DNA of 64,000 nt, taken from the NCBI GenBank assembly GCA_964016885.1, contig OZ024740.1, positions 62,372,001 through 62,436,000 of the forward strand, read 5' to 3'. Below the pieces are notes generated by a model. That model saw only the letters and a program-made list of their open reading frames with translations, searched no databases and was not told where the DNA came from. Numbering within the stretch: the stretch's first letter is position 1; every line of letters begins with the position of its first letter. The translations under genes were made by a program, and so were the position numbers. This stretch comes from Eledone cirrhosa (taxonomy: Eukaryota). Shown piece after piece: positions 4,229 to 47,007 of the stretch.

Positions 4229-4811
4229 AATCGAGAAAAGTCCGTCATCAGTAATCTGCTGATTCTCATTGGTATTTCTTCGCATTAAAGAGTAGATACC
4301 TAAAATCAGTGCGAGCGATAACTAAATTAAGTTATCGGGACAGAGGAAAGTGAACAAACAACATGGTAGTAAAGAGAGGAAAAGAGAGACAAGTCAATGA
4401 ATCTTGTGGGCTTAAGTCCGACAAATCAAATGACGAGAAGAAAATAGACACGTCCGAGCCACGAAAAAATTGAGGGAGGAAAGAATTAACGCAGGTCAGA
4501 CGGGAGGAAGTGAGAGAGGAGGAGTAGCAGAGAGTGAGTGAGTGAAAGTGTGCTGAAGGGGCCAGCTGAGTGTGTGACCAGCAGCGGGGATAGAGGAAAG
4601 TAAGAGGTAAGGGGGAGAGAGAGAAAGAGGAAAGCAGTAAGGTAACAGAAAAAAAAGAACCACAGCGAATATATATATATATATAAGGAAAAGAATTTGA
4701 AAATGGAACTGGAGTCTTTTAAGAATATTTATTTACTTTACCTGTTTCATAGTTCTTATGATTTTCAAAAGATCATTTTTGATCTTTTGACTCTACTTAT
4801 ATATATATATA

Positions 4812-6231
4812 TACTTGATGGATTAGGTTATGAAAGTGGCAGAGAGAATATTAGCACAACTGATTAGAGAAAAGGTCAAATTAGATGAGATGCAGTTTGG
4901 TTTTGTGCCTCGGAAAAGTACAACAGATGCCCTCTTCTTAGTGTGACAACTACAAGAGAGGTTCTTAGAGAAGAATAAGCCACTATACTTAGCTTTTGTT
5001 GACCTAGAGAAGGCCTTTGATAAGGTACCCCAATCTGTCATCTGGTGGTCCCTAAGGAAACTAGGTGTAGAGGAATGGCTTGTGAGGACAGTGCAAGCTA
5101 TGTACAGGGGTGCTGTCAGTAAAGTGAGAGTAGAAATGGAGTTTAGTGAGGAATTCCAGATACAAGTAGGTGAACATCAGGGTTCGGTCCTCATAACAGA
5201 GGAGTTTAAGACTGGATGTCCATAGGAACTTCTCTATGCTGATGATCTGGTTCTTATAGCAGAATCAGTAGAGGAGCTAGAGAATAAATTCTGGCTATGG
5301 AAACAGCAGTTGGAAGCAAGAGGACTGAGAGTGAATCTAGCTAAGACAAAAGTGTTGATGAGTAGAAAAGAGGACAAAACCCTGATTCCGTCAGGGAAAT
5401 GGCCATGTTCGATATGTTGGAAAGGAACTGGCATAAATTCCATAAAATGTACGCAATGCAGATCCTGGGTACACAAGAGATGTAGTGGGATAGCAGTTAA
5501 ACTAAGAGGTAGAGAAAACTACATATGCAGTAGATGTACAGGAAAAGTTGGCAGTAGTAAATACAGTGAGAGACACATTTTTCCAATGCAGGTGGGTTCT
5601 ATAGAAGTGGTTGATAGCTTCTGGTACCTAAGTGATCAGACTAGCATGGGAGGGGGGTGTTCCGAGGCCATAGTATCTAGAATATGGACGGGTTGGAAGA
5701 AGTTTAGGGAGCTGCTTCCTCTGTTGACAAAGAAGGGTTTCTCCCTGCATACAAAAGGATGGTTATATGATGTCTGTGTGAGATGCGCGGTGCTGCATGG
5801 TAGTGAGACATGGGCAGCAACTGCAGAGGATATGCGACAGCTGGAGAGAAATGAAGCAAGCATGCTCCGTTGGATGTGCAATGTCAATGTGTGTGAACGA
5901 CTAAGCATAGAGGAGTTGAAAAAGAAACTGGGAATAAGAGGGATAAGTTGTGGTGTGCAAGAGAGAAGACTGAGATGGTATGGACATGTGATGCGCATGG
6001 AGGGTGACCGCTGGGTAAAGAAGTGCCAAGAAATCCCAGTAGAAGGAAGACGCAGTAGAGGTAGACCACGAAAAACATGGGCGGAGGTGGTGAGAGCAGA
6101 CCTCAGATCGCTGAAACTCACGGAGGAGATGACGAAGGACCGTGACAAGTGGAGAGATGCTGTGCTGAATAGGACCCGTCCAACCCTTGCAAGCAGGGAA
6201 AAACGGACGTAAAATGATGATGATGATGATA
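4812..6231 (+). mobile_element. 5'-truncated RTE-clade LINE (RT C-terminal half with PHD finger), disrupted
   Basis: QFGF, FVDLEKAFD and LYADD motifs with stops. ORF 5310-6212 has C4HC3 and LHGSETW...RLRWYGHVMRM...GRPRKTW. 3' tail GGACGTAAAA(TGA)n; flanked by (TA)n. Confidence 0.92.
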
Positions 6232-6982: not shown

Positions 6983-7651
6983 GATTTATTAATGAAGGAT
7001 CCCTAGTTTGTGTCTTCATACGCCACTAAATCCTTAGCCAATGCACTGTGTATACTTAAATATAAGATGGCACTAAACATAGTATTTTAATAAACATCCC
7101 ATTTTAATAATATAAGAACAGTGAGATAATTTGTAAAGACATTTTCAAGGGATAGTTTTTGTCATATAGAAAGACTATTCTATATACATGGTACAGCTGT
7201 ACGAGTAAAAGTCACTACTTATAAGGTAGATTTAATTCATTGCCCAGTTTAACACCACTTCTTGGCCCTAGGATGTCTTTAGCAGAATTCACACTGTTGC
7301 AATTATTTGAGCCAGATCCCTGGCTTGCAGATACGATCCTCTCTTTCCCTCCCACTTGTTGTATGGACTGGGAATCGAACTCACAACCTCATTGTTGTAT
7401 GGACTGTTAAATTCGATTTGTTCAATTTACACGTGCTCACACATTTGCATATGCATCACGTGACCTGGGCAGTCAGTCAGCGTTGGTATTAAAAACTCGG
7501 TCACAGACTGCTACTGACTTACTTTATGTTATTCTGCTACTGCGAGGAAGGGCGTTTTAGTTGTTTCGCAAATTACACAAATTATTTGATATAACTCGTT
7601 GTGTTTTCTCTGCGAGTACCGAGAGGAATACAACAGTTTATTGGCGTCGAC

Positions 7652-7826
7652 GATAGGATTTACCTACATTGCCGATAGGATTTACCTACATTGACGATAG
7701 GATTTACCTACATTGCCGATAGGATTTACCTACATTGCCGATAGGATTTACCTACATTGCCAATAGGATTACCTACATTGCTGATAGGATTTACCTACAT
7801 TGCCGATAGGATTTACCTACATTGCC
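7652..7826 (+). repeat. Tandem array of 8 x 22 bp (GATAGGATTTACCTACATTGCC) in the LTR element leader
   Basis: Directly visible. One copy is 21 bp. The array starts inside the PBS. Confidence 0.95.
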
Positions 7827-7849
7827 GGGCAATTGTTTATAACAAAAAC

Positions 7850-8893
7850 ATGGCGGAACAACAAACAGCGGAGCTAATAAAGTTGTTTAGAGAACAGATG
7901 GAACAACAAATGCAACAGCAGGAACAACAAATGCAACAACACAAGAAAGATATGGACACTCTGATAAAACTGTTTGGTGCTCGAGATTCTGAACAACAGA
8001 GTTTATTGGCGTCGCCAGTTGCTTCGACACCAACAGCATTCATCCCACCATTTGCTGCTTTTGATTCAACAACAGAACTATGGCCTGATTACTGGTCAAG
8101 ATTCTGCACGTTTGTGGCTGCTAACGCTGTACCCGAGCAACGCATGGCACAAGTGTTCCTGACTAATCAGATGGCTGCTATCTACAAACAACTTGCAAAT
8201 CTGGCTGCTCAACAAAATCCGCCTAAGAATATCAACAAGTTGACAATGGACGAAATTGTTGACTTCATGAAAGAACAGTTCGACCCAAAACTTTTCATTG
8301 TGAGAGAACGTTTCAAGTTCTGGAGTGACATGCAACGGAAGCCAGGCGAAACTCTCCAGGAGCTGGCAGCACGTATACGTCAGGATGCAGCTACCTGTGA
8401 TTTTCCTTCGATCACAAATCCACAAGATGAAGCTCTAAGACAGAGATTTATATGTTCTGTCAATAATGAAGCTGTGTTGAAGGCTATTTTCAAGATCAAG
8501 GATACAGAACTAGATTTCGCCCGTGCTGTCCAAGTTACCATCGGGACCGAAGACGCAGCAAAGGTTGCCAAGGAAACTGTTTACGGTTCCAAAACCAAGC
8601 AAGTCTACAAGGTCCAGCAGAACAAGAACAAGGGTCCTCGAAAGAACCATCAGCAGTCTTATTCCACAGACCAGGAGATGTGCTACCGATGTGGAAAGGC
8701 CCACAAAGCGACAGACTGCCCCTTCAAAGAAGCCAAATGTCATTTTTGTGACAAAAAGGGACATTTGCAAGCGGTGTGTAGAAAGAAACATCAGCAACGT
8801 AATCATCGCTCACAGAATTACGTGAAAAGAATCACGAAAGCTGAGCTAGTCAAGGCGATCCTTCTGAAGTTCCCCACGATACTCATAGTTTGA
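7850..8893 (+). CDS. Gag of element 1
   Basis: Likely ATG at 7850. Q-rich coiled coil, ERFKFW..QRKPGETL motif and two zinc knuckles (CYRCGKAHKATDC, CHFCDKKGHLQAVC). Confidence 0.9.
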   Translation: MAEQQTAELIKLFREQMEQQMQQQEQQMQQHKKDMDTLIKLFGARDSEQQSLLASPVASTPTAFIPPFAAFDSTTELWPDYWSRFCTFVAANAVPEQRMAQVFLTNQMAAIYKQLANLAAQQNPPKNINKLTMDEIVDFMKEQFDPKLFIVRERFKFWSDMQRKPGETLQELAARIRQDAATCDFPSITNPQDEALRQRFICSVNNEAVLKAIFKIKDTELDFARAVQVTIGTEDAAKVAKETVYGSKTKQVYKVQQNKNKGPRKNHQQSYSTDQEMCYRCGKAHKATDCPFKEAKCHFCDKKGHLQAVCRKKHQQRNHRSQNYVKRITKAELVKAILLKFPTILIV

Positions 8894-11800
8894 ATGTGCC
8901 AATAACAATCCAGAACAGACTTTTCACAATGGAATTGGACACAGCTACTACAGGCAATTTTGTTTCCTTGTCAGTTTGGAAACAATTAGGAAAACCGAAG
9001 CTGCAAGATGTCAAACATCGGTTTGAATCTGCCAGCAAGCACGACCTACCCGTTCTGGGAACTTTCATGGGCCAAACCAAGGATCCAACGACCGGTAAAC
9101 GGAATTCAATACCCTACATCGTCACCAAGATCCCTGATCTTAATTTGCTGGGACGAAACGCTATCCAGACTCTGGGAATTTCCGTGGACAATGCTCTAGG
9201 ATTGAAAAGCATAGACAGCCAGGCCAAGAGTGAGGGTGCAGAAGTGATGCATCCAAAGACCTCAAATGAGCCCTATATTTCCATGCAACGAGATTGTCAC
9301 AACATGTGTGATGAATTCCCAGATCTCTTCAAGCAAGAATTGGGATGTCTTAATGACTTCGAACTGGAAGTGAAGTTCAAGTCGGACGCGACACCGGTCT
9401 TTCACAAGGCACGCTCGGTCCCGTTTGCTCTTCGTGATGACCTGGCCAAAGGTTACGAAGAAGGCATCGCCAAAGGAATCTGGAAGCCAGTACAGTTCAA
9501 CGAATACGGAACGCCAGTGGTACCGATTCGTAAAGCACATACTTCAGGACCTGAAGCCCAAACTACGGATTTGTGGTGACTACTCTGTGGGAATTAATGA
9601 CCAACTTGCAGATCATCGTCATCCAATGCCACTCCCAGAGGAACTGATGCAGAAGCTCGGAGGTGGATTCGGATACACAAAGATTGATCTTGCTGATGCC
9701 TATAATCAGATCAAGCTGGCTCCAGAAAGTCAACGCAGGCTTGCACTCAGCACTCACCGTGGGGTGCTCCTGCAGGAACGACTCCCTTTCGGAATCAAGT
9801 CAGCACCTGGTTACTTTCAGATCATGGAAAACCTGACTCAAGATCTACCTGGTGTGGCCGTCTTCCAGGACGACATGCTCGTCAGTGGGAAAGATGCAAA
9901 CGATCACCTGAACAACCTAAAGTGTCTGCTCGCACGTCTGTGCGACAAAGGACTCAGATGTCGCCGTGACAAGTGCCAGTTTGCACTACCCAGTGTGGAA
10001 TACTTTGGACACACCTTGTCGGCTGAAGGGATCGCGAAGGGATCCAAGGGCGAAGTAGTTTTAAAGATGCCACCTCCAACGAACGTCTCAAGCTTGAAGT
10101 CTTTCCTGGGTTCAGTTCAGTTCTATGGAAAGTTTATCCCAAACCTGGCCAGCATGGCAGAGCCACTCTATTGCCTTACGAAAAAAACGACTACTTGGAA
10201 GTGGGGAGATGAAGAACAGTCATCTTTCGATCAGTTGAAAAATGTGCTTTCATCGGATCGAGTTCTGATACACTTCGATCCAAACAAAACTTTGGGACTG
10301 GCTTGCGACGCGTCAAACGTTGGTATTGGAGCAGTCCTGTTTCATCGCTATCCTGATGGAAGCGAGCGCCCAATATCCAATGTGTCCAAGACTCTTACTT
10401 CTGCACAGCGTAACTACGGCCAAATTCAAAAGGAAGCCCTGGCCATCATATTTGGCTTGCAGAAGTTCTATCAGTATCTGTACGGACATCAGTTTATACT
10501 CGTAACTGACCACAAGCCACTGACATCACTGTTCAGTCCGAGGAAAGGGACGCCACTTCTCGCTGCTAACCGACTAGCACAGTGGGCCCTGTGGCTGAAC
10601 CAGTTTGACTACACCATCGAATATCGGAAAACAGCGGATCATGGAAATGCAGATGCCCTCAGTCGCTTGCCATTTGGTAATGACATCGACTTTGACAGGA
10701 AGGAAAATGGTGAAGACATGGACATGGTGTGCGCCATCAAAGCTCTCAGTCTTCAAGTCCAACCTATCGATTCTAACGTCCTCCGTCAAGAGTCAGGGAA
10801 AGATCCAGTAATATCTACAGTGATACGCTACGTCCGTGAAGGCTGGCCACCAAAGAATACTGAGATCAATGACGAAGTCAATAAGTTCCGGAAGTTATCG
10901 GATTCACTCAGTATCTGCCACGGATGCCTTATCCATGGATCGACAGTTGTGATTCCACATAGCTTACAGCCAAAGATCCTCAATCTTCTGCATCTTGGAC
11001 ACTTTGGCATGGAGCGCATGAAACAATTGGCAAGAACTGCTGTTTATTGGCCTGGTATCGATGCTGCTATAGAGAAAACCAGTCGACAAAGTGATTCGTG
11101 TGGTGAACATCAAAACCAGCCATCCAAGTCTCCAGTTCACCCATGGATGTTACCTGAAAAGCCGTGGAGCCGCTTACACCTGGACCACGCAATAAATTTC
11201 ATGGGCAGTAATTGGTTGGTGATCACGGATGCTTATTCCAAGTATCCATGCATTCATCCTACGTCATCCACGTCCTCCAGAGCCACTTTAGATCTGCTTG
11301 AAGAAGACTTTGCGCACTTCGGATTTCCTCACATGCTAGTCACCGATAACGCACCAACTTTTATTTCTGAGGAGTTCCAGAGCTGGTGCAAAGAACGTGG
11401 GATCATGCACCTGACAGGGGCACCTTACCACCCAGCTACTAACGGAGCAGTGGAACGTTTGGTGCAGACCTTCAAACAAGCTCTGAGGAAGACTTCTCTT
11501 CCACCGAAGTGAGCACTTCAAGAGTTCTTGATGCAGTACCGGAGAACACCGACATCCAGTGGATTCTCTCCGAGTGAACTTTTGAATCACCGGCAGATAC
11601 GGACAAGGATTGATTCTCTGCTGCCCTCGCCAGCACACATCGCTCAAGGCAAGCAGTCTAAGGAAGCATATAAGTCTCAGATGACTCCGGACTCGGCAGG
11701 TGTCGCTAAGGTTACCAGGCAGTACAAGGCTGGAGATCCTGTGTATGCACTGTACTACGGACCTCGCCGAGACAAAGATCCCCGATGGGTACCAGCAATC

Positions 11801-12102
11801 ATTAAGAAGTCATTGGGTACTCGCTGCTTCAACGTGAAGGTCATACCTCATGGCCCGGTGTGGAGATGACACTGGGAACAGCTGCAACCGCGGTACACTA
11901 CTGAGGAAGACAATGAACCTGGTGATGCAGTAGACACTGTTTTTGAATTTGCAACAGATCACCTGATGGAGATCTCGGAAATCGTGCCACTAACTCCAAG
12001 ACAGACCAGACCCAAGACCTTATTGCCCGTTCCAGAGTATGGACCAGACAATCGAAGACGGTCCAAGAGAACTCGTAAATCCCCAGAGAGACTTTGCTAT
12101 TG
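8890..12102 (+). pseudogene. Pol of element 1 (protease, RT, RNase H, integrase), with frameshifts and stops
   Basis: Protease ELDTA; RT KIDLADAY, LPFGIKSAP and FQDD; RNase H CDAS...TDHKPL; integrase LHLGH, TDN and VER. Breaks near 9550, 11510 and 11867. Confidence 0.92.
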
Positions 12103-13348
12103 ATGCTTCTTTTGTCACATCAATTTCGGTGGGGAGGTGTTGTATGGACTGGGAATCGAACTCACAACCTCATTGTTGTATGGACTGTTAAATTCGATTT
12201 GTTCAATTTACACGTGCTCACACATTTGCATATGAATCACGTGACCTGGACAGTCAGTCAGCGTTGGTATTAAAAACTCGGTCACAGACTGCTACTGACT
12301 TACTTTATGTTATTCTGCTACTGCGAGGAAGGGCGTTTTAGTTGTTTCGCAAATTACACAAATTATTTGATATAACTTGTTGTGTTTTCTCTGCGAGTAC
12401 CGAGAGGAATACAACACCACTAGTCTTGCAGGTCTTGAAAAGGGCCATGGATAACCTTGGTCTCTCCTTGACATGAAGAAAAAAATAAAAGAGAATGTTT
12501 GTTGCATGGGCAAAATATTATGTTTTCTGACTTGAGAAACCCCAGGTTAAGTTTTCTAGTTTGGAAAATATTATTCAGATTGTACCATTGTGGTGTGCAC
12601 TGATTCTAATCAACATTCTGTAAAGTCTGGTGTACTCAAGTTTGCCTTTCATTATTTTGAGGTCAATGAAATAAATTAGAACCAGTTTAGAGCAGTCAAT
12701 TGACAGAGTTGTTACGGCATCAAATGAAATGCTTTGCGTTATTTGTTCTGGCTCTTTGTGTTCTGAGCTCAAATCTTGCTGTGGCCTTCTTAATCTGTCA
12801 CCTGGTTTAACATTACTAGTTGGCCATTGGGTGCTTTTGATGGAACCCAATCTGTTGCAAGTCAAGTTTCCAGTTTCAGGCTATCTTCCTCTTTCCCACT
12901 GGTTTTGAATGCAGGAAAGAAAGATCATGGACACAACCTTTCCTTCCTTGACTATACAGTAAAAACTTTTTTTAAAAGGGATGAGATATAAATATCCCCC
13001 TTGATGAGAAGCCAGTCTATCACATGTGACTTCCCTTGCTGATTTGATACTCACTAAATTTTTTGAACAGTGTGTGAGGTTGGCAAATATGGCATGGGCC
13101 TACTCTAAGCATACTTCTGTAGGTAAAGAAAATCACAGTAAAAAGAAGGCACTTGGCCTTGGCGGTCAGAGTGATCTGTTGGAGTCTTTGATTGGCTTTA
13201 GGCAGCTGGTTCCCATCCCCTGTTGGTATTCTTTTGTTATCTCTTGTTTTTGTTAATTTCATTTTACATGTATGTCAACCCCTGTCTTTTGTACGGCTCT
13301 ATTTGTCTTTGATCCCTTGTGGCTAATAAAGAAATTCTTATTTTTTAG

Positions 13349-17310: not shown

Positions 17311-20300
17311 CATGGACCCCACTCAATCATTACCTTCTTGCTAGCTATTTTCAAACCTTAATTCCTAACGTATTTTCAAACCTCAATCCCAAATTCTAGC
17401 GTATCTTCAAAACAAAAAAACAAAATCCTTTCCTTCTTCCTTCTTCGAAGGCACGGGGCGGTCAAACGCCTAACACTCACAGCCATCATATGGCCCCCTC
17501 CCCTCGCTCTCTCTCACTCTCTCTCTCTCTCTATAAATATATGATAGGAATTCACTTCGCCAAATTTCATTTCATTGCTTGCTGGCCACGATATCCATGT
17601 AAACGTAATGTACAGACTTCATCTCTCTCCCTCCACAAATCTTAATCCTAGCGTATTTTCAAAACAATCCATATTTCGTATCAAGTCCAAATAGCCAATC
17701 TATCGCTAAAACAAACTACATTTTCTGTTTCTATTAATTGCTAAATACGTAGGTTTTTGGACGTATTTAACAGAACAAATTTTGTATTTTTGTTAATCGC
17801 TTGTTAAATGCATGGACCCCACTCAATCATTACCTTCTTGCTAGCTACCCAACACCCCTCCCTCCCACCCCCACGCACCACCATTGCTATTACGTGGACC
17901 AATCATAAAACAGAGCCCCCACGCATCACCAGTATTATTACGCGGATCAATCAGAAACCAGAGGCCTATACTATCGCTTGCCTGGTTGCCTTTCGATATA
18001 CGATATATGATGGATGGATGGACTGCGGAATCCTGGAGAGTGGAGGTGAGAGAGAAAAATCTGGACGCTCAGCGACAATGCCAAAGATAAAGACAAATTC
18101 ACCTCTTGGACGAGAATGCGAGCACTCCTCATTGTTTCGACCGCGGACGGCTAACATAACCCCATCGCCCCCCGCCCCTCACCGCCCCCAACCCCCAAAC
18201 GCAATCCAAAACTTCAGAGTTGGTACCATAAATGTAGGCACCCTAAAGGGTCGCGCTAACGAGGTTGTAGAAATGCTTGAACGTAAGGAGGTCGATGTTT
18301 GTTGTATTCAAGAGACCAGGTGGAGGGGTGGGTCTGCTAGGTTCATTGAGGGTAAAAAACGATGTTATAAGCTTTTCTGGGTGGGAAACGATGATGGGCT
18401 GGGTGGAGTAGGAATCATGGTAGCAGAAAAGTGGGCAGATAAGATAATAGACGTAAATAGAGTGAACGACAGAATAATTAAAATACGACTTGTCCTCAAT
18501 AGAACTACGGTGACAGTAATATCTGCGTACGCACCCCAATCCGGACTGCCCGGCACTATAAAAGACAGATTCTATGAGACACTGATGCTAACTACCTCCC
18601 AAATATCCGACAGTGACTATATAATTATCGCAGGCGACCTAAATGGTCACGTTGGACAACATTGTGACGGCTACGACGAAATCCATGGAGGCTATGGGTT
18701 TGGTACTAGAAATGAGGAAGGCGCCAGAATCCTGGAATTCTGTGATGCAAATAACCTAACTATCTGTAACACTAACTTCAAAAAACGTGACAATCACCTG
18801 ATCACCTATAGATCCGGGGAACACACAAGCCAGGTAGATTATATCCTTACCAGAAGACGTGACAGAGTGTCTGTTGTTAACACTAAATCCCTCCCCCATG
18901 AAGAATGCACCTCCCAACATAGACTGATAATTAGCGACCTCATAGTCAGGACGAGACGTACTCGACAACAGAAGAGGACTATCCTCAGGAGGAAAATATG
19001 GAAGCTAAAGGACCCCACAGCCAGGAATAAATTTCAAAGCATATTACTTGATGCTTTCGACAGTAAGGAAGAACATTTAGAGTCGGACAATATAGAGGGA
19101 GAGTGGGAATTTCTGAAAGCAAACCTGCTGTTGGCGACAGACGAGGTCTGTGGCTGGAGCAGGCCTGTAGGCAGGAGGAGAGTAACATGGTGGTGGAACA
19201 GTAAGGTGGAGGGGTCAATTAAGGCCAAAAAGCAGGCTTGGAAAGTATGGCGGGATGGGGGAAGTAGAGAGGACTATCAAGTGGCCAGGAGGGAAGCTAG
19301 GAGACAAGTGTACTTAGCAAGAAGGGAAGCTGAGGAAAGAAAGTTCAAGCATGTTCTACAACGCGATGACCAAAAACGTGAGGTGTTCAGGATTGCTAGG
19401 CAATGCGTCAAGGAAAACCGTGATATTGTCGGGGAGAAGTGTGTACTAAACGACGATGGCACACTTGCCATCACCGACGCTGATAAGAAGGTAGCTTGGA
19501 AGTGTCACTATGAAAGGCTACTAAATGAGGAGAATAATTGGGAGAAAGGCAGTCTCCCCCATATCGACCCAATAGAGGGACCAGCAGTGTTAGTCGAGGG
19601 GAGTATAATAAGTAAGGCAATCAAGGATATGAAGACTGGTAAGGCGGCTGGGCCTTCGGAAATAGTTGCTGAGATGCTGAAGGCATCTGGCACGGTGGGA
19701 CACACCATGGTCACCCGCATAGTTAACCAAGTCGTACAGAATGGGGTTGTTCCGAAGGACTGGCATAGCAGCATCATCGTTAACTGTTATAAGGGTAAAG
19801 GAGACGCCCTAGATAGGAGTAACTATAGAGGCATTAAATTAATCGACCAGGTCATGAAGGTCACGGAAAAAGTAATAGCGCAACTAATCAGAGAGAGAAT
19901 TGACCTAGATGAAATGCAGTTCGGGTTTGTGTCAGGCAAAAGTACCACAGACGCTCTTTTCATAGTACGACAACTACAGGAGAAGTACCTAGCTAAAGGT
20001 AAACCCCTCTACTTAGCTTTTGTCGACTTGGAGAAAGCCTTCGACAGAGTCCCCCGCTCCATTATCTGGTGGGCTCTTAGAAAACTAGGCGTTGACGAAT
20101 GGCTTGTGAGGGCTATACAAGCCATGTATAAAGAAACAGTCAGCAAGGTTAGAATTAACAACGAATATAGTGAAGAGTTTAGCGTAAAAGTTGGCGTCCA
20201 TCAGGGCTCTGTTCTCAGTCCACTACTATTTATTATTGCCCTTCAGGCTATAACAGAGGAGTTCAAGACAGGCTGCCCATGGGAACTCCTATACGCAGAC

Positions 20301-21337
20301 GACCTGACACTCATAGCGGAATCAATGGCCGAGCTAGAGAAGAAATTCCAAACATGGAAGCACGGCCTAGAGTCAAAAGGACTTAAAATTAACCTGGCTA
20401 AGACCAAAGTACTAGTTTGTAGGAAAGAAAACAAGGCGGCGGTCCCTTCTGGGAAATGGTCGTGCTCGGTGTGTAGGAAAGGCGTAGGTAGAAACTCCAT
20501 TTTATGTCCTAAATGCAAAGTATGGGTGCATAAAAGATGTAGTGGGATCACAGGTAAGCTAACTAAGAACATAGATTTTACATGTGGCCGGTGCTCTGGT
20601 GCAATAAGTAGCAGCAAGTGCCCACAAACTACTAGCTCTTTCAATTGCGCAGAGGGTTCTATAGAAATAGTGGACAGCTTCCGTTACCTGGGCGATAAAA
20701 TCAGCAGTGGGGGAGGGTGCTCTGAAAGTACTGTAGCTAGAGTCAGAACTGGTTGGAAAAAGTTCAGAGAGCTTATACCACTATTAGCTGCTAAAGGGTT
20801 CTCACTAAAAATGAAAGGCAGGTTGTACGATGCCTGCATACGAACAGCAATGCTGCATGGCAGTGAGACCTGGGCATTGTGTGCAGAGGATATACGCAGA
20901 CTAGAGAGGAACGAAGCTTGCATGCTCCGCTGGATGTGTAACAGTAATATACGTGAACGGCAAAGCATAAACGAACTAAGGAAAAAATTAGAGATAAGAG
21001 GGATCAGATGTTGTTTACTCGAGAGAAGGCTACGTTGGTATGGACACGTGATGCGCATGAAAGTCGATAGCTGTATAACAAAGTGCAGGGCAATAAAGAT
21101 AGACGGTAGTCACGGAATAGGCAGACCTAGAAAAACCTGGGACGAGCTGATAAACTCCGACATCACACACTTACACCTCTCCAAGACAATGTCACTGGAC
21201 CGAGACCTTTGGCGGTACTCAGTAACAGAGAAGACCCGCCTTACCTAAATATATAGTAAAACCTACTCCAGCCAGTAGGCATCTCTAACAAAATACACCC
21301 CGTCCCACCACCACCACCCGATCCACACCACCCCGTT

Positions 21338-23426: not shown

Positions 23427-24889
23427 GTAAGTTCAGTTTTTCTCTTCACATTGTTAGTTTATTTCAATGGTTTTAAAACTTGTCGGCCCCATCAATCTGC
23501 TGTGCTGCAAAGGGCAAGATATTATCTCAGAATGTGTAAAATACAAATTGAAATTCATAATAAAATTCACAATAATGATAATCATCATCATCACTGTTGG
23601 ACGTCCAATTTTCCACACTAACATGGGTTAGATGGGTTAGATGGGTTGTCCTATTGTGAGACAAGTCAGGTCAGATGACCGTGTCTTGCTCATAGAGAAC
23701 TGTTTCTGACTCGGTTTCTACAGCTAGATACCCTTCCTAAGTTATCTATATTTCTACTTTATGCTCAGTTAATATTTATAGATAACTTTTTTGAATAAAT
23801 TTTCGAATTTAGATACTAAGTATGCTGAAATATTTTTACTTGTTCTAAAATGCTCTGCTAGTAAAAAAAGTTTGGGAACCCCTCCCTGGCTTATTGGATT
23901 TTAAGGGCTTTTTCTCTTTTGGTTTTGATATTGTTGCTGTTTTAAAACGATCTTCACAGGTGCTGACATGGCTGAAACATTATGGCATGACAGGCTTCAA
24001 TAGAGTTTCTGTCTACCAAATTCATTCACAAGTCATTGGCTAGCTCAAAGCTGTAATGGGAGACACTTGTCCAAGGTGCCATGCAATGGGGCAGGACCTG
24101 CAACCATGTGATTGTGAAGTGAACTTTTTAATTACATAGCCATACTTGTTCCTTAACAGCTATGTCTGCACTTTCACAGCTGTGTGTGTGTGTGTGTGTA
24201 TGAAGGTATGTGGCCTAATGGTTAGGGTGTTGAACTCAATTATAAGCTCATAGGTTTGATTCCTGGAACAGGCAGCACGTTTGTGTGTATGTGTGTGTGT
24301 ATCTCCACATGTCTTCATGATAGCATGTGAGCAAGTATTGTGGTTTGTTTCTATCCCACAGCTTAGCAAGTGGTCATAAATCAGCAGAAATATATATATA
24401 GGCGCAAGCATGACAGTGTGGTTAAATTATCACAACACTGTGGTATTGGCTTCAGTGAGTAGCACTTTGGGCAAGTTTCTTTTACTACAGCTTTGGTTTG
24501 ACCAATGCCTTGTAATTGAAGTTTGGTAGACTAAAGCTGCAGAAGTCTGTTGTATATATATAGGCTCAGTGTGTGTGCCTCAGCATTGTTATCATCATTT
24601 AAAGTCCATTTTCCCTGTTTATGTTTATGCTCATTATACGCTAGTAGCTAGAGCTTTACAAGCTTCTAATGTATTATAGGTGACCTGGTATCACCTTTTG
24701 TATCAAAACCATATTATTTATGTAGCTGATAGGAGTGGCTGCATTGTTTCCTATGTTGTATCTATGTCTTATATATTTTTGTCCTTGTACTATATCACAC
24801 ACACACACGCCTCAGCACGTAAAACTAACTTGGAAGACGGACGACGGATCGGCAGCGTGTAACACACACAGACACACACACACACACAC

Positions 24890-26376
24890 GCCGGGCTCTT
24901 AGAAAACTAGGAGTAGATGAATGGCTTGTGAAAGCTGTACAAGCCATGTATAGGGGAGCAGTCAACAAAGTTAGGATTAGCAATGAGTATAGCGAGGAAT
25001 TTAGCGTACAGGTTGGTGTCCACCAGGGCTCTGTTCTTAGCTCTCTCCTGTTCATCATAGTCCTGCAGGCAATAACGGAGGAGTTTAAGACCGGATGCCC
25101 ATGGGAACTCCTGTATGCAGATGACCTCGCACTTATAGCTGCATCTATGGTAGAACTAGAGAAGAAATTCCAAACTTGGAAGCAGGGACTAGAAAGAAAG
25201 GGTCTCAAAGTCAACCTGACAAAGACTAAGGTCCTTGTAAGTAGACTAGAAAACAGAACCCAGATCCCCTCAGGGAAATGGCCTTGCTCAGTATGTAGGA
25301 AAGGTGTAGGTAGGAACTCCATTCTCTGCCCCAAATGCAAACAATGGGTACACAAGAGATGTAGCGGGATCTCAGGAAGCTTAATTAAGAATGTAGGCTT
25401 CACATGTAGCAGCTGTGCTGTGACAGCAAGCAGCAAACAGCCACAGGAAACAAGTACCACCAATCTCTGGGAGGGCTCTGTAGAAACAGTAGACAGCTTC
25501 TGCTACCTAGGTGACCGAATTAGCAGCGGAGGTGGGTGTTCAGAAAGTACAATAACTAGGGTAAGAACGGGATGGAAGAAGTTCAGGGAACTACTGCCAC
25601 TGCTTGCTGCAAAAGGCTTTTCCCTCAAAATGAAAGGCAGACTGTATGATGCGTGTATACGAACAGCAATGTTACATGGTAGTGAGACCTGGGCGCTGAA
25701 GGTGGAAGACTTACGTAGATTGGAAAGAAACGAAGCCTGCATGCTCCGATGGATGTGTAATAGTAATATGCGCGAGCGGCAAAGCATAAATGAATTGAGA
25801 GAGAGACTGAGCATAAGAGGAATCAAATGCTGTGTGCAGGAGAGGCGGTTGCGTTGATATGGACATGTGATGCGTATGAAGGATGACAGCTGCATAAAAA
25901 GGTGCAGAGCACTAGAAGTCAATGGAAACCTGGAGTGGGGAGACCAAAGAACACCTGGGATGAGGTGATAAAAGCTGACCTTACCCAATTACACCTCTCA
26001 AAGGCGATGACACACGACTGTGACCTCTGGCGTCACGCAGTAATACAGAGTACCCGACCTCCCATGGGTACAAGCTGAAGCATATAGACAATATGCCCTC
26101 ACACCCTCCCACTGTAAAGTGGTCGTGGAGGTGCCACGGCAAAAAAGCACCCAGCCCACACTGTAAAGTGGACGTGTAGGCGCCACGGAAAAAAGCACCC
26201 AGCACTCACTGTAAATGAGGTTGGTGTTAGGAAGGGCATCCAGCTGTAGAAATCAAGCCAAAATCAGTTCCTATATGAGCAAGGCATGGTCAGCCGACCA
26301 GACACTGCCCACAACAGGACAACCCGTCTAACCCATGGAAGAACGGACGTAAAACGGTGATGATGATGATGATGAT
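24890..26376 (+). mobile_element. 5'-truncated RTE LINE with PHD finger, disrupted
   Basis: ORF 24928-25857 is closely similar to the C-terminal part of the intact ORF. Stop codon at the W of RLRW. 3' UTR ends GGACGTAAAACGG(TGA)n. Confidence 0.93.
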
Positions 26377-43495: not shown

Positions 43496-43587
43496 TACAT
43501 ACATATCCACACATACATACATTCATACATACATACATATCCACACACACATATTCATACATACATACATACAAACACACATACATT

Positions 43588-45529
43588 TATAGCGAGGATA
43601 TAGCGAGGATACTGGGTTGTATGAATGTAACAAGGAGACATGGTTTGTGTGTATAATATTTAATCAACAATTTAACAGTATAGTTGACATGTCAATGAAT
43701 AAACGAAAGAATGAAGCAAAGTTAGTAGTTACCGTTTTGATTGCCAGGCAAACGCGAGACGCCTTGCGAAGGCCAGGCGCCGGAAGGGCAAATGAGAGGG
43801 AGAGAGCCGAAGGCTATTCGTTTTATAGGGCTCTGCCGGAAGTTACAGAAAGGGTTCTACTTCCCGTCTAGATGTTGTTAATCTATTGGGGTTGTGAGTC
43901 ACAACAAGGGAGACAACCGCTACATAACCTCCCGCCAGAATTTTAGAATATAAAAATCGAATGAAATAGTTGGCGAGAATGTTGTAACAGGCATGAAAAT
44001 TACGACAAAAGAATGTTTGCAAAAATCAATGATAGATATCAAGGTAGCCAACCGCTCTTGGCCAGAGAACGACTGGACATCTATCTATCCATCACCCAAA
44101 GATACAATGTAATAAAGTAAGAGAAGGGCTCAAAGTTCAAATGTACAAAATATAGTTCACAGGTGTGCAATCATATGACAGCAGGAAAGAAAGTGTGTTC
44201 CAGAGAATGAATGCAGGTGGTTTCTGTTCTGTGGTATAACGTGAAATTTCGAACCTCCGAATGGATTTTCTCACAGGAAGAGTGCTGCAAAAATAAATTC
44301 TCTGGCTTGTTCTGCTGGTTTTGGTTGTTGGTGAAGCTGTGTTGCTGTTGATGTCTCGCTGAGTGAGCGTATTCGGTGTTTAAATTCACAGTAAAAAAAA
44401 AATTTTTTCCGGAAAAAATGAGTTGTGCAAAGTGCCAGAAATAGCAGCCGAAGTTGATGGTCGATGTTGAGAATGCGTTGACCTGGAAGGGTCAAGAGGC
44501 CAGCGACCAAAGAAATAAGCATTCTGAATAAATGCGCAGTTTTCAACGGCAAATTTACGTGGTAAATTTTTAAACCGGCAAATAGGAGAATATAGCTTAA
44601 GGCTGAAGAATCCTTGGCGAGAAACGTTATCTCTGGCGTGCGGCTATCTCTGTGAGTTGAGAATTTGTGCAGCCTACACGTGCCAATACAAGGATAAGTT
44701 AGGTTGAAAAAATAATATTTCTAACGCGCGAGAAAATGATAGTGCAAGTGTGAAAGTGACAATGATGAAAAAGAAAGGCTTCACTCGGCATAATTATTGG
44801 TGTGAACTTTTGAAAAAAAAAAAAAACTTGAACGATGAAGAAAACGATGAAAAAAAAGGCAAGGGTTCATCGAAAATAAATGTTCCTGTTGAAATGTTTT
44901 TTAAAAAATATCAAATTTCTTTTTTGTTTTGAAAGTGTTCGTTGTAAGAAACGAGAAACATATATATATATCGTGAAATGCGACAGTTAGTTGATGCGTG
45001 AGAGAAAAAGTCTGTCTGTGCGAAAATTTCACATGTGCGAGGTGTGTTCGTTTCTTTGAGTATTTTCATAGTTTGTCAATAAATTTGCTGTGTATTCGTA
45101 ATGTTACTCACACAACACCAGATTATGCTATTTTTTTCTTTTTTCGGGGTGACCACTTATAGCGATGGACGGCTGCGTGTTCGTATCACGTCAGGGTTAC
45201 CAATATAGCGAAGATACTGGGTTGTATGAATGTAACAAGGAGACATGGTTTGTGTGTATAATATTTAATCAACAATTTAACAGTATAGTTGACATGTCAA
45301 TGAATAAACGAAAGAATGAAGCAAAGTTAGTAGTTACCGTTTTGATTGCCAGGCAAACGCGAGACGCCTGGCTAAGGCCAGGCGCCGGAAGGGCAAATGA
45401 GAGGGAGAGAGCCGAAGGCTATTCCTTTTATAGGGCTCTGCCGGAAGTTACAGAAAGAGTTCTACTTCCCGTCTAGATGTTGTTAATCTATTGGGGTTGT
45501 GAGTCACAACAAGGGAGACAACCGCTACA
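43588..45529 (-). mobile_element. Non-autonomous Gypsy-type LTR element (element 3), tRNA-Trp primed
   Basis: 326-bp LTRs at 43599-43924 and 45204-45529 (about 5 differences), 4-bp TSD CATT. On the minus strand, PBS TGGTAACCCTGACGTGAT and PPT CTGGCGGGAGG. No intact ORF. Confidence 0.93.
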
Positions 45530-47007
45530 CATTCATACATAATACATACATACATATACATACACACACATTCATACACACATACGTACATACACACACA
45601 CATACATACATACACACACACATGCATATATACACACATAGATACAAAGCCAATTCTTGTGAGTACATGCACAATTTATCAAAGCATTTCATTCAATATA
45701 CATTTGTTATTTCGATAAACTTACCAGTATTTACATATACAAGTTTCGCAGTATATCTGATTATAGATCAAAGTAAGGCAAATTAAAACAGCATGCAGGG
45801 GGAAAGGATTTTACTTTCATACAAATTCGAGATGTTAGATATTTTGAATTACAAATCAAATTATCGTTTCATTTGGTCTTGTTCCATAAACTGAAAAACA
45901 AAAACAAAACAATAATAACAAAAACATTAAGAAAGATTAAAACTAAAAAGAAAGAAAAAATATAAATATCTGAAATTATAAAAAGGATGTTTCTTAACTC
46001 TTAACATTCTGTAATTATTTAGCAGAACATATCTAAACATGGGTTCGTTTATTCAAATGTTTATAGCATCTATACTATAGGACATGTGTGGGTTAGTGAT
46101 TAGTGTGTTGGTCTCACGATTTAATGCCTGTGAGTTTGTTCCATGGAAGGAGTGGCGCATTGTGTCGTTGAGCAAGAAACTTTATTTCACGTAGCTTCAA
46201 CCCACACAACTGACCCCCCCCCCCCCCCAAAAAAAAAAAAATACAAAACAAGAAAAAAAAACCCAACAATGGTGATGACAGAGTTAAGCTGTGTTGGCCT
46301 TTGCCTTTCCATTAAACGTTATTGGTGAGACTGGCATGATATAGACGACTGCTGGTTTTTCAAAATACATCATTGGAGAGGAAATTTCCAAGTGAAAAGC
46401 CATATTCTCATGTTCCCTGAAACATTGCAATATTAAAAAACAACAAACAAACAAAAAACAACAACAATAAAATAAAAAACAAAGCAAACTTATATTATGA
46501 GCTAAATAGACATTAGGAGTAATAAATAAATCATGTTTCAGAAGAAGGGAGGTAGGTGTAAAAGCCAAACTCACTGTCTTTAATTTGGCTTTCGTGCCAA
46601 CCCTTGAATACGATCGCGAATAGAAGCGGAGGAAATGGTATTGCTCCGAAGGATCTTTGGAGTAACGAAGGATCTTTCCGTAACCCGGAGATCAGAGAGT
46701 CACTCGAAGTAGAGCCGCTACTTCTCAGAAGAAGAAGAAGAAGAAGTTTCATTTAGTGTTGCGATTCGAGGAATATCTTAATTGAGGAAAGTGACAATAT
46801 GCACGGAACACGGTTGCTAGATTGAGCTAAATGTAGCAGATTCGGGTGAAATAACTAGCAACATTTTTCATGGTTGGAATATTTCTTTTTATCATAGATT
46901 TATTTGATCAAGGTTGACAAAATAAAGTACCAGTCAATTTGTACCCATAAATAATGAATGAGCGATGTGTATGTAACATGTGGTGTGATAAATAAATATA
47001 TACATAT

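Follow-up and report, generated by a model that had tools for sequence, protein, structure and literature searches.

The window analyzed here, a 64-kb stretch of the 3.0-Gb genome of Eledone cirrhosa, contains at positions 43588-45529 a 1.93-kb non-coding LTR element on the minus strand (Table 1). With two LTRs, a primer-binding site, a polypurine tract, a 4-bp target-site duplication, and no coding capacity, this is a non-autonomous LTR retrotransposon. The complementarity of its primer-binding site to tRNA-Trp and the 4-bp duplication, which was also seen in several relatives of the window copy and in L180 and L186, are two characteristics of the CsRn1 lineage of Ty3/Gypsy elements. The CHCC gag motif was found in the Trp-primed coding relatives L180, L181, L185, and L186, and the GPY integrase motif in L181 and L184; the window element itself has no coding region. 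CsRn1-lineage reverse transcriptases (RTs) group with CsRn1, Kabuki, and Boudicca in trees. Searches with pol matched Gypsy pol relatives, none of them labelled as CsRn1-type references. No coding helper for the window family was found among nine 10-kb loci, and the viral contig collection contained no match. Elsewhere in the window, three related LINE-type fragments (4800-6212, 17808-21248, and 24829-25857) contain endonuclease and/or RT sequences followed by a PHD finger.

Table 1. Features of the LTR element in the window
Feature	Position	Strand
Left target-site duplication, CATT	43584-43587	+
Duplicated U5 end of the 3' LTR, 11 nt; seen in the window copy only	43588-43598	-
3' LTR, 326 nt; 98.5% identical to the 5' LTR	43599-43924	-
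Internal region, non-coding; polypurine tract adjoins the 3' LTR; longest stop-free frame 149 codons	43925-45144	-
Older primer-binding site, 11 nt, tRNA-Trp positions 66-76; one difference, C72G (at 45151)	45145-45155	-
Old spacer CT (45156-45157), 8-nt stub of the LTR U5 end, and 5-nt linker	45156-45170	-
Extended primer-binding site, mature tRNA-Trp(CCA) positions 45-76; A58T (45184), G67A (45193), C72T (45198)	45171-45202	-
Position 58, T; family founder trait	45184	+
Spacer A, between the tRNA copy and the 5' LTR	45203	
5' LTR, 326 nt	45204-45529	-
Right target-site duplication, CATT	45530-45533	+

The first-pass annotation had described two stacked units, each composed of a primer-binding site and an LTR end, next to the 5' LTR. 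The sequence reads as claimed, and the stack is present, together with T58, in all of the 30 best relatives that were fetched. In the stub at 45158-45170, the first 8 nt are identical to the LTR end TATAGCGA, and the remaining 5 nt form the linker. The stretch at 45171-45202, which was said to comprise 32 nt with CCA and the T-arm, was aligned as proposed with the species' own tRNA-Trp genes and corresponds to positions 45-76 of the host tRNA-Trp(CCA) gene L051, with 29 of 32 letters matching, CCA included. The change of A58 to T in the T-loop was confirmed, whereas the differences at positions 67 and 72 had gone unflagged. A single T-arm motif is present in the window, where 0.01 would be expected by chance, and ARAGORN, which confirmed the tRNA-Trp(CCA) genes taken from this genome, detected no tRNA gene within the 64 kb. 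CCA is absent from the host tRNA-Trp gene copies whose sequence was inspected, a degenerate pseudogene-like copy being the one exception; at the junction, as in a reverse transcript of a mature tRNA, this non-templated triplet is joined to the tRNA 3' sequence. Judged by its letters, the 32-nt stretch is a copy of the mature tRNA-Trp primer.

A tRNA-derived SINE or a Helenus-type source was rejected, as the tRNA copy sits outside the LTR, at the primer site. In the Helenus-type element, as described in PMC10886601, the tRNA-like sequence is located inside the LTR. A SINE source is further at odds with what follows the CCA-ended copies, namely, a spacer and then LTR ends of various kinds, not a repeat of their own.

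The first-pass annotation had also named what would undo its reading, a host tRNA-Trp gene or a SINE encoding both T58 and CCA. None such was found. One of the 62 host tRNA-Trp gene copies, the intact-looking L187, does carry T58, but on an A57 allele, unlike the window family, which is G57; a G57-T58 tRNA-Trp gene was not present among the 62 copies. The T58 gene copies, L187 for tRNA-Trp and L326 and L341 for tRNA-Ser, lie in or near large tandem tRNA arrays, with dozens of copies for Trp and 249 matches for Ser. The T58 matches for tRNA-Ser were ruled out as read-through products, being gene copies without CCA.

History of the stacked family

A linker-anchored pattern retrieved 557 family units, to which some elements contribute two and among which 549 carry T58 and eight C58, with neither A nor G at this position; in the window copy, the linker itself is altered. 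The number of units with a perfect tRNA match at positions 61-76 was estimated at fewer than about 90 from the best 100 of 119 matches. A further 144 relatives are unstacked, the 11-nt site being their sole primer site and abutting the LTR, and 18 of the 30 unstacked relatives fetched have the adjacent internal segment in common with the family. These unstacked relatives establish the stacking order that had been proposed, in which a new primer-binding site was added in front of an older site and LTR-end stub. In L075 and L086, stacked copies of the oldest type, the stub repeats the spacer and LTR end of the copy itself. Both primer sites are perfect but for position 58, the sole difference from the tRNA within 32 nt.

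A tree built from 81 internal segments places five oldest-type copies, as well as the separate A58 stack L107, within the unstacked copies. Its resolution is weak, long-branch rows are present, and a single origin of the stack was neither shown nor rejected (p-AU 0.17). Later in its history, the family fixed other primer-site changes: most copies differ at 67 and 72, and 7 of 30 carry C56G. In the three-unit stacks L071/L072, L074, and L137, the third unit arose by duplication of the whole unit, T58 included, and not by new read-through. In L074, the unit nearest the LTR agrees with the tRNA at 59-76, the older one is mutated, and T58 is kept in both. A window-family copy in L179 (4628-6748) is nested in a coding element, and its LTRs are 100% identical, indicating that the family moved recently.

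T58 arose once, in the founder of the window family, and about 550 units inherited it. Recurrent overwriting of this position among family members was ruled out, none of the 557 units carrying A58. The tabulation of position 58 across the family, which the first-pass annotation had recommended, thus revealed a base other than A throughout, but the copies are not independent. Since T58 traces to a single event, they carry no statistical weight, and such weight has to come from other families and single insertions.

Primer copies at independent junctions

The genome was searched for tRNA positions 42-76 plus CCA with a pattern that specified A58 and tolerated two mismatches at any site, a design that leaves out the window family and family B. 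Of 45 matches, one gene was removed, and the remaining 44 copies were merged into 37 junctions by collapsing six copies of family C, two copies of family D, and two palindrome arms. Position 58 is altered in 9 of these 37 junctions versus 35 of 1,258 other cells (2.8%; binomial P = 6e-7, or 2e-5 after correction for 35 sites), and other A positions are altered in 4 of 222 cells. That position 58 changes more often than its neighbors, as the first-pass reading demanded, therefore holds across independent junctions. The altered alleles are T (five), C (three), and G (two), and transversions make up 8 of 10 changes at position 58 versus 11 of 36 elsewhere (P = 0.009), A-to-T transversions being rare at other sites. 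Leaving out three A57-T58 single insertions, position 58 is altered in 6 of 34 junctions (P = 3e-4; 0.011 after correction for 35 sites).

The copies end in a structured manner: none of the 37 ends before position 27, seven end at 27-29, none at 30-34, and 30 at 35-42. G37 is replaced by C or T in two of the seven long copies versus none of 84 neighboring cells (rough P = 0.005), and L146 skips 5 nt in the region of position 37. Ends and wrong bases at positions that are methylated on the Watson-Crick face in fly and human tRNA-Trp, as expected of a reverse transcript of a mature tRNA, were thus found in independent junctions. The claim that RT read past the modified base and misincorporated there gains genome-wide support from the excess of changes at positions 58 and 37 and from these end positions.

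Several observations bear on how far this signal extends. Most of the changes at position 58 fall in A57 junctions (7 of 14, compared to 2 of 23 G57 junctions; P = 0.014), which weakens the case for the G57 window lineage. G49A occurs in five of the 37 junctions (L102, L103, L153, L173, and L165) and in none of the 62 genes, and would convert the G49-U65 wobble to a standard pair; the counts of changes at positions 58 and 49 do not differ significantly (P = 0.37). The T-dominated signature seen in vitro is not reproduced at the junctions, 28 of 37 of which keep A58; the primers may have been unmethylated, or the correct base inserted.

Dozens of the CCA-ended copies are one-off insertions with unique flanks. 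A stub of the element's own LTR end is present in 6 of the 37 junctions (L166, L171, L141, L103, L164, and L147). These mini-elements consist of this short stub together with a single LTR and a tRNA copy. L166 and L171 are bounded by clean 4-bp target duplications and were thus likely integrated by integrase. Target duplications flanking single insertions were also sought more generally, with nothing reliable found, as the LTR ends are mostly undefined. Ty1 cDNA carrying tRNA sequence is known to be captured at DNA breaks. Beyond the six stub-bearing junctions, two others are fold-backs. L138 is a palindromic insertion in which an LTR end and tRNA copy are folded back at the anticodon stem, with T58 in both arms; in the L154/L068 insertion, an inverted LTR adjoins tRNA position 28, and positions 58 and 37 are both C.

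Ordinary primer sites were surveyed as exact 18-nt matches. The genome contains 410 of these, and the survey covered all 81 on contig C1 plus three from C2; sites below this length escape the search. Among the 38 junction groups obtained, 24 end at position 59, five at 58, one at 57, and eight reach further, so that the normal strong-stop halt leaving an 18-nt copy is apparent as the main end. Three of the eight longer groups end at position 45, two of them belonging to the window family. By eye, one-base insertions or deletions at position 58 were noticed in extended or slightly extended primer sites (L272, L305, L308, and L312), and 5 of 26 junctions without A58 match the tRNA at 55-57. A second stacked family (L258, L269, L298, L307, L320-L322, L324, and L325) combines a new site with an older primer site and an LTR stub; its short match is at 55-57, and position 58 is T. 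In paired LTRs (L236-L255), the last 30 nt of U5 differ more than the rest (28/480, 5.8%, versus 93/4,320, 2.2%; 16 of 21 elements). This excess is clustered in few copies and is suggestive of a U5 end sometimes taken from another template.

Extended primer sites are also found in the Trp-primed coding families B (L180) and C (L185 and L186), both with the Ty3/Gypsy domain order and CsRn1-type motifs; in family C, the tRNA match reaches 37-38. In the window, a coding Ty3/Gypsy element on the plus strand (7357-12416; LTRs 99% identical), which has pol domains, is primed by tRNA-Ser(AGA), and its primer site at about 7642-7660 is followed by about eight tandem 22-nt units, which start inside the site and extend to about 7830. 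Its relative L342 has an extended Ser primer copy of about 30 nt, indicating that read-through is not restricted to tRNA-Trp. A metagenome scan returned 11 loci, 10 of them distinct and one gene-like. Two candidate loci end at exactly position 27 and one reaches 28 with G37T; C or G occupies position 58 in three of nine, in a search whose pattern left only position 58 free, so that neighboring positions are not comparable. DNA of other organisms thus appears, from these sequences, to show the same pattern.

Origin of the extended primer copies

In fly and human tRNA-Trp(CCA), m1G9, m2,2G26, m1G37, and m1A58 are listed in Table S2 of PMC8062790 (mim-tRNAseq), and misreading of the fly tRNA in that data set gives T in about 76% at position 58 and A, C, and T about equally at 37. 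By analogy with the fly and human data, tRNA-Trp is probably methylated at these sites in the host species as well. The ends at positions 59, ~38, and ~27 would then each lie one base before m1A58, m1G37, and m2,2G26, allowing for a short overlap by chance or microhomology. Shared stops and changed letters likely record the methylation sites of the primer tRNA at the time of copying in the germline.

Plus-strand strong-stop DNA would normally end at position 59. In the founder of the window family, a Ty3/Gypsy RT likely ran past the methylated A58 of its mature tRNA-Trp primer and probably inserted a wrong base opposite it, giving rise to T58. The leaked extra tRNA copy would find no partner on the minus strand, and plus-strand transfer may have been mis-aimed onto a minus-strand end still carrying U5. 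The predicted product, LTR, long tRNA copy, U5 stub, and old site, has the observed order. Ahead of the old 11-base primer site, the over-long DNA end was likely linked to the LTR-end stub; this molecule would have founded the family of about 550 copies, whose expansion the longer primer site may have helped. The end at position 45 and the 5-nt linker do not follow from this route. We consider this explanation as a whole, including an origin of the T58 of the window lineage from read-through misincorporation, to be quite probable.

The misincorporation in the window lineage itself, as asserted by the first-pass annotation, is likely, but an early neutral mutation could account for one event. 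Under this alternative, read-through is real, and T58 arose in the family as an ordinary mutation preceding its expansion, as might be argued from its status as a single founder event, from the other primer-site changes that the family fixed, and from the rarity of altered position 58 in G57 junctions. The oldest-type stacked copies, however, differ from the tRNA at position 58 and nowhere else in the 32 nt, A-to-T transversions are rare at other sites, and T is the commonest change at position 58; we therefore regard an ordinary mutation as unlikely. Faithful copying of a rare T58 tRNA-Trp allele, which would be unmethylatable at position 58 and hence present no stop, could draw on the gene copy L187, on four A57-T58 junctions resembling it, and on the T58 gene copies of tRNA-Ser. 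It appears very unlikely, given that the known allele is A57 and the window family G57, and that such an allele cannot yield the C58, G58, or G37 changes (five junction alleles at position 58 and two at 37).

The extension might instead be an evolved second pairing site for the T-arm, comparable to the Ty1 boxes or the lentiviral over-extension sequence, built by selection or by recombination with a tRNA gene in the absence of read-through. Whole families, namely, the window family, B, and C, keep extended sites, and stacked units outnumber the unstacked relatives (557 versus 144), as would suit such a function. An origin of this kind is contradicted by the contiguity of the copies with CCA, which the genes lack, and by their ends at 59, 38, and 27, and the many one-off insertions speak against it too. 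Selection may have kept the product, yet this leaves its making unexplained, and we find this origin scarcely credible. Read-through of a methylated primer with misincorporation thus stays our preferred explanation.

Read-through itself is already known in vitro; an inherited genomic record of it appears to be new within the literature searched. Our search found no description of primer copies that arose by read-through, became integrated, and bear modification signatures, although older subscription literature may hold one. We lean, with some reservation, toward the broader notion that animal genomes constitute a fossil tRNA-seq, preserving at which positions (58, 37, and 26) and, allele by allele, to what level germline tRNAs were methylated, as well as how the methylated bases were misread in vivo, and that the errors rebuild eroded primer sites and launch families. 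If this is true, modifications could be mapped from assemblies alone, and the present data suggest that tRNA methylation sites may be readable from assemblies of species without RNA data. The plus-strand stop at m1A58 has so far rested on in vitro and mutant-cell work with few retroviruses; in the Eledone genome, this stop, the frequency with which it leaks, and the two stops that follow would be preserved in heritable DNA that an animal Ty3/Gypsy enzyme wrote in the germline. Mis-aimed transfer of a read-through product would also provide a concrete route to long or doubled primer sites.

Relation to known systems

The pattern at these junctions resembles the retroviral strong stop, for which m1A58 is established as the plus-strand stop (PMC8599865 and PMC13191261). 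In HIV-1 and M-MLV, as here, the main end lies one base before position 58, and minor stops occur in the T-loop (55 and 54) and at 37. Read-through in these viruses was observed in vitro or in mutant cells, and the long products fail to complete transfer, whereas the copies in Eledone are integrated and inherited. A primer over-extension sequence of lentiviruses and spumaviruses, described in PMC13191261, is likewise a tRNA-complementary stretch directly behind the 18-nt site. It reaches about position 54-55, whereas the match in the window element reaches 45 and carries a changed position 58; that in family C reaches 37-38.

In yeast Ty elements, the minus-strand 3' end retains U5 sequence according to PMC5371799, as the stub of the window element requires, and in Ty1/Ty3 strong-stop DNA that copies the primer accumulates as a dead end. 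The primer copy of Ty1 and Ty3 is 12 nt long and reported there not to be inherited; the copies described here are inherited and 18-50 nt long, which makes primer sequence heritable in Ty3/Gypsy elements, contrary to the yeast model. With the CsRn1 lineage (PMC3630058), the window element shares the tRNA-Trp primer site and the 4-bp target duplication, and its coding relatives share the CHCC gag and GPY motifs; the window element itself is non-coding, and its assignment to this lineage is putative.

In mouse ETn/MusD elements, the commonest primer site differs from the tRNA at two positions, and apparent reversions are attributed to copying of the primer (PMC7472051). Those mismatches lie inside the 18 nt and, according to the authors, do not coincide with modification sites; an origin from modification was considered and rejected by them. 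Signatures obtained by tRNA sequencing (PMC8062790, PMC5066629, and PMC4787781) are similar to ours in that stops and wrong bases occur at positions 58, 37, and 26; the same sites act as RT stops and as mutations (PMC5066629), and the m1A signature is context dependent (PMC4787781). Such sequencing employs laboratory enzymes on purified RNA, whereas the junctions in Eledone would have been written by the element's own enzyme, with A58 mostly kept.
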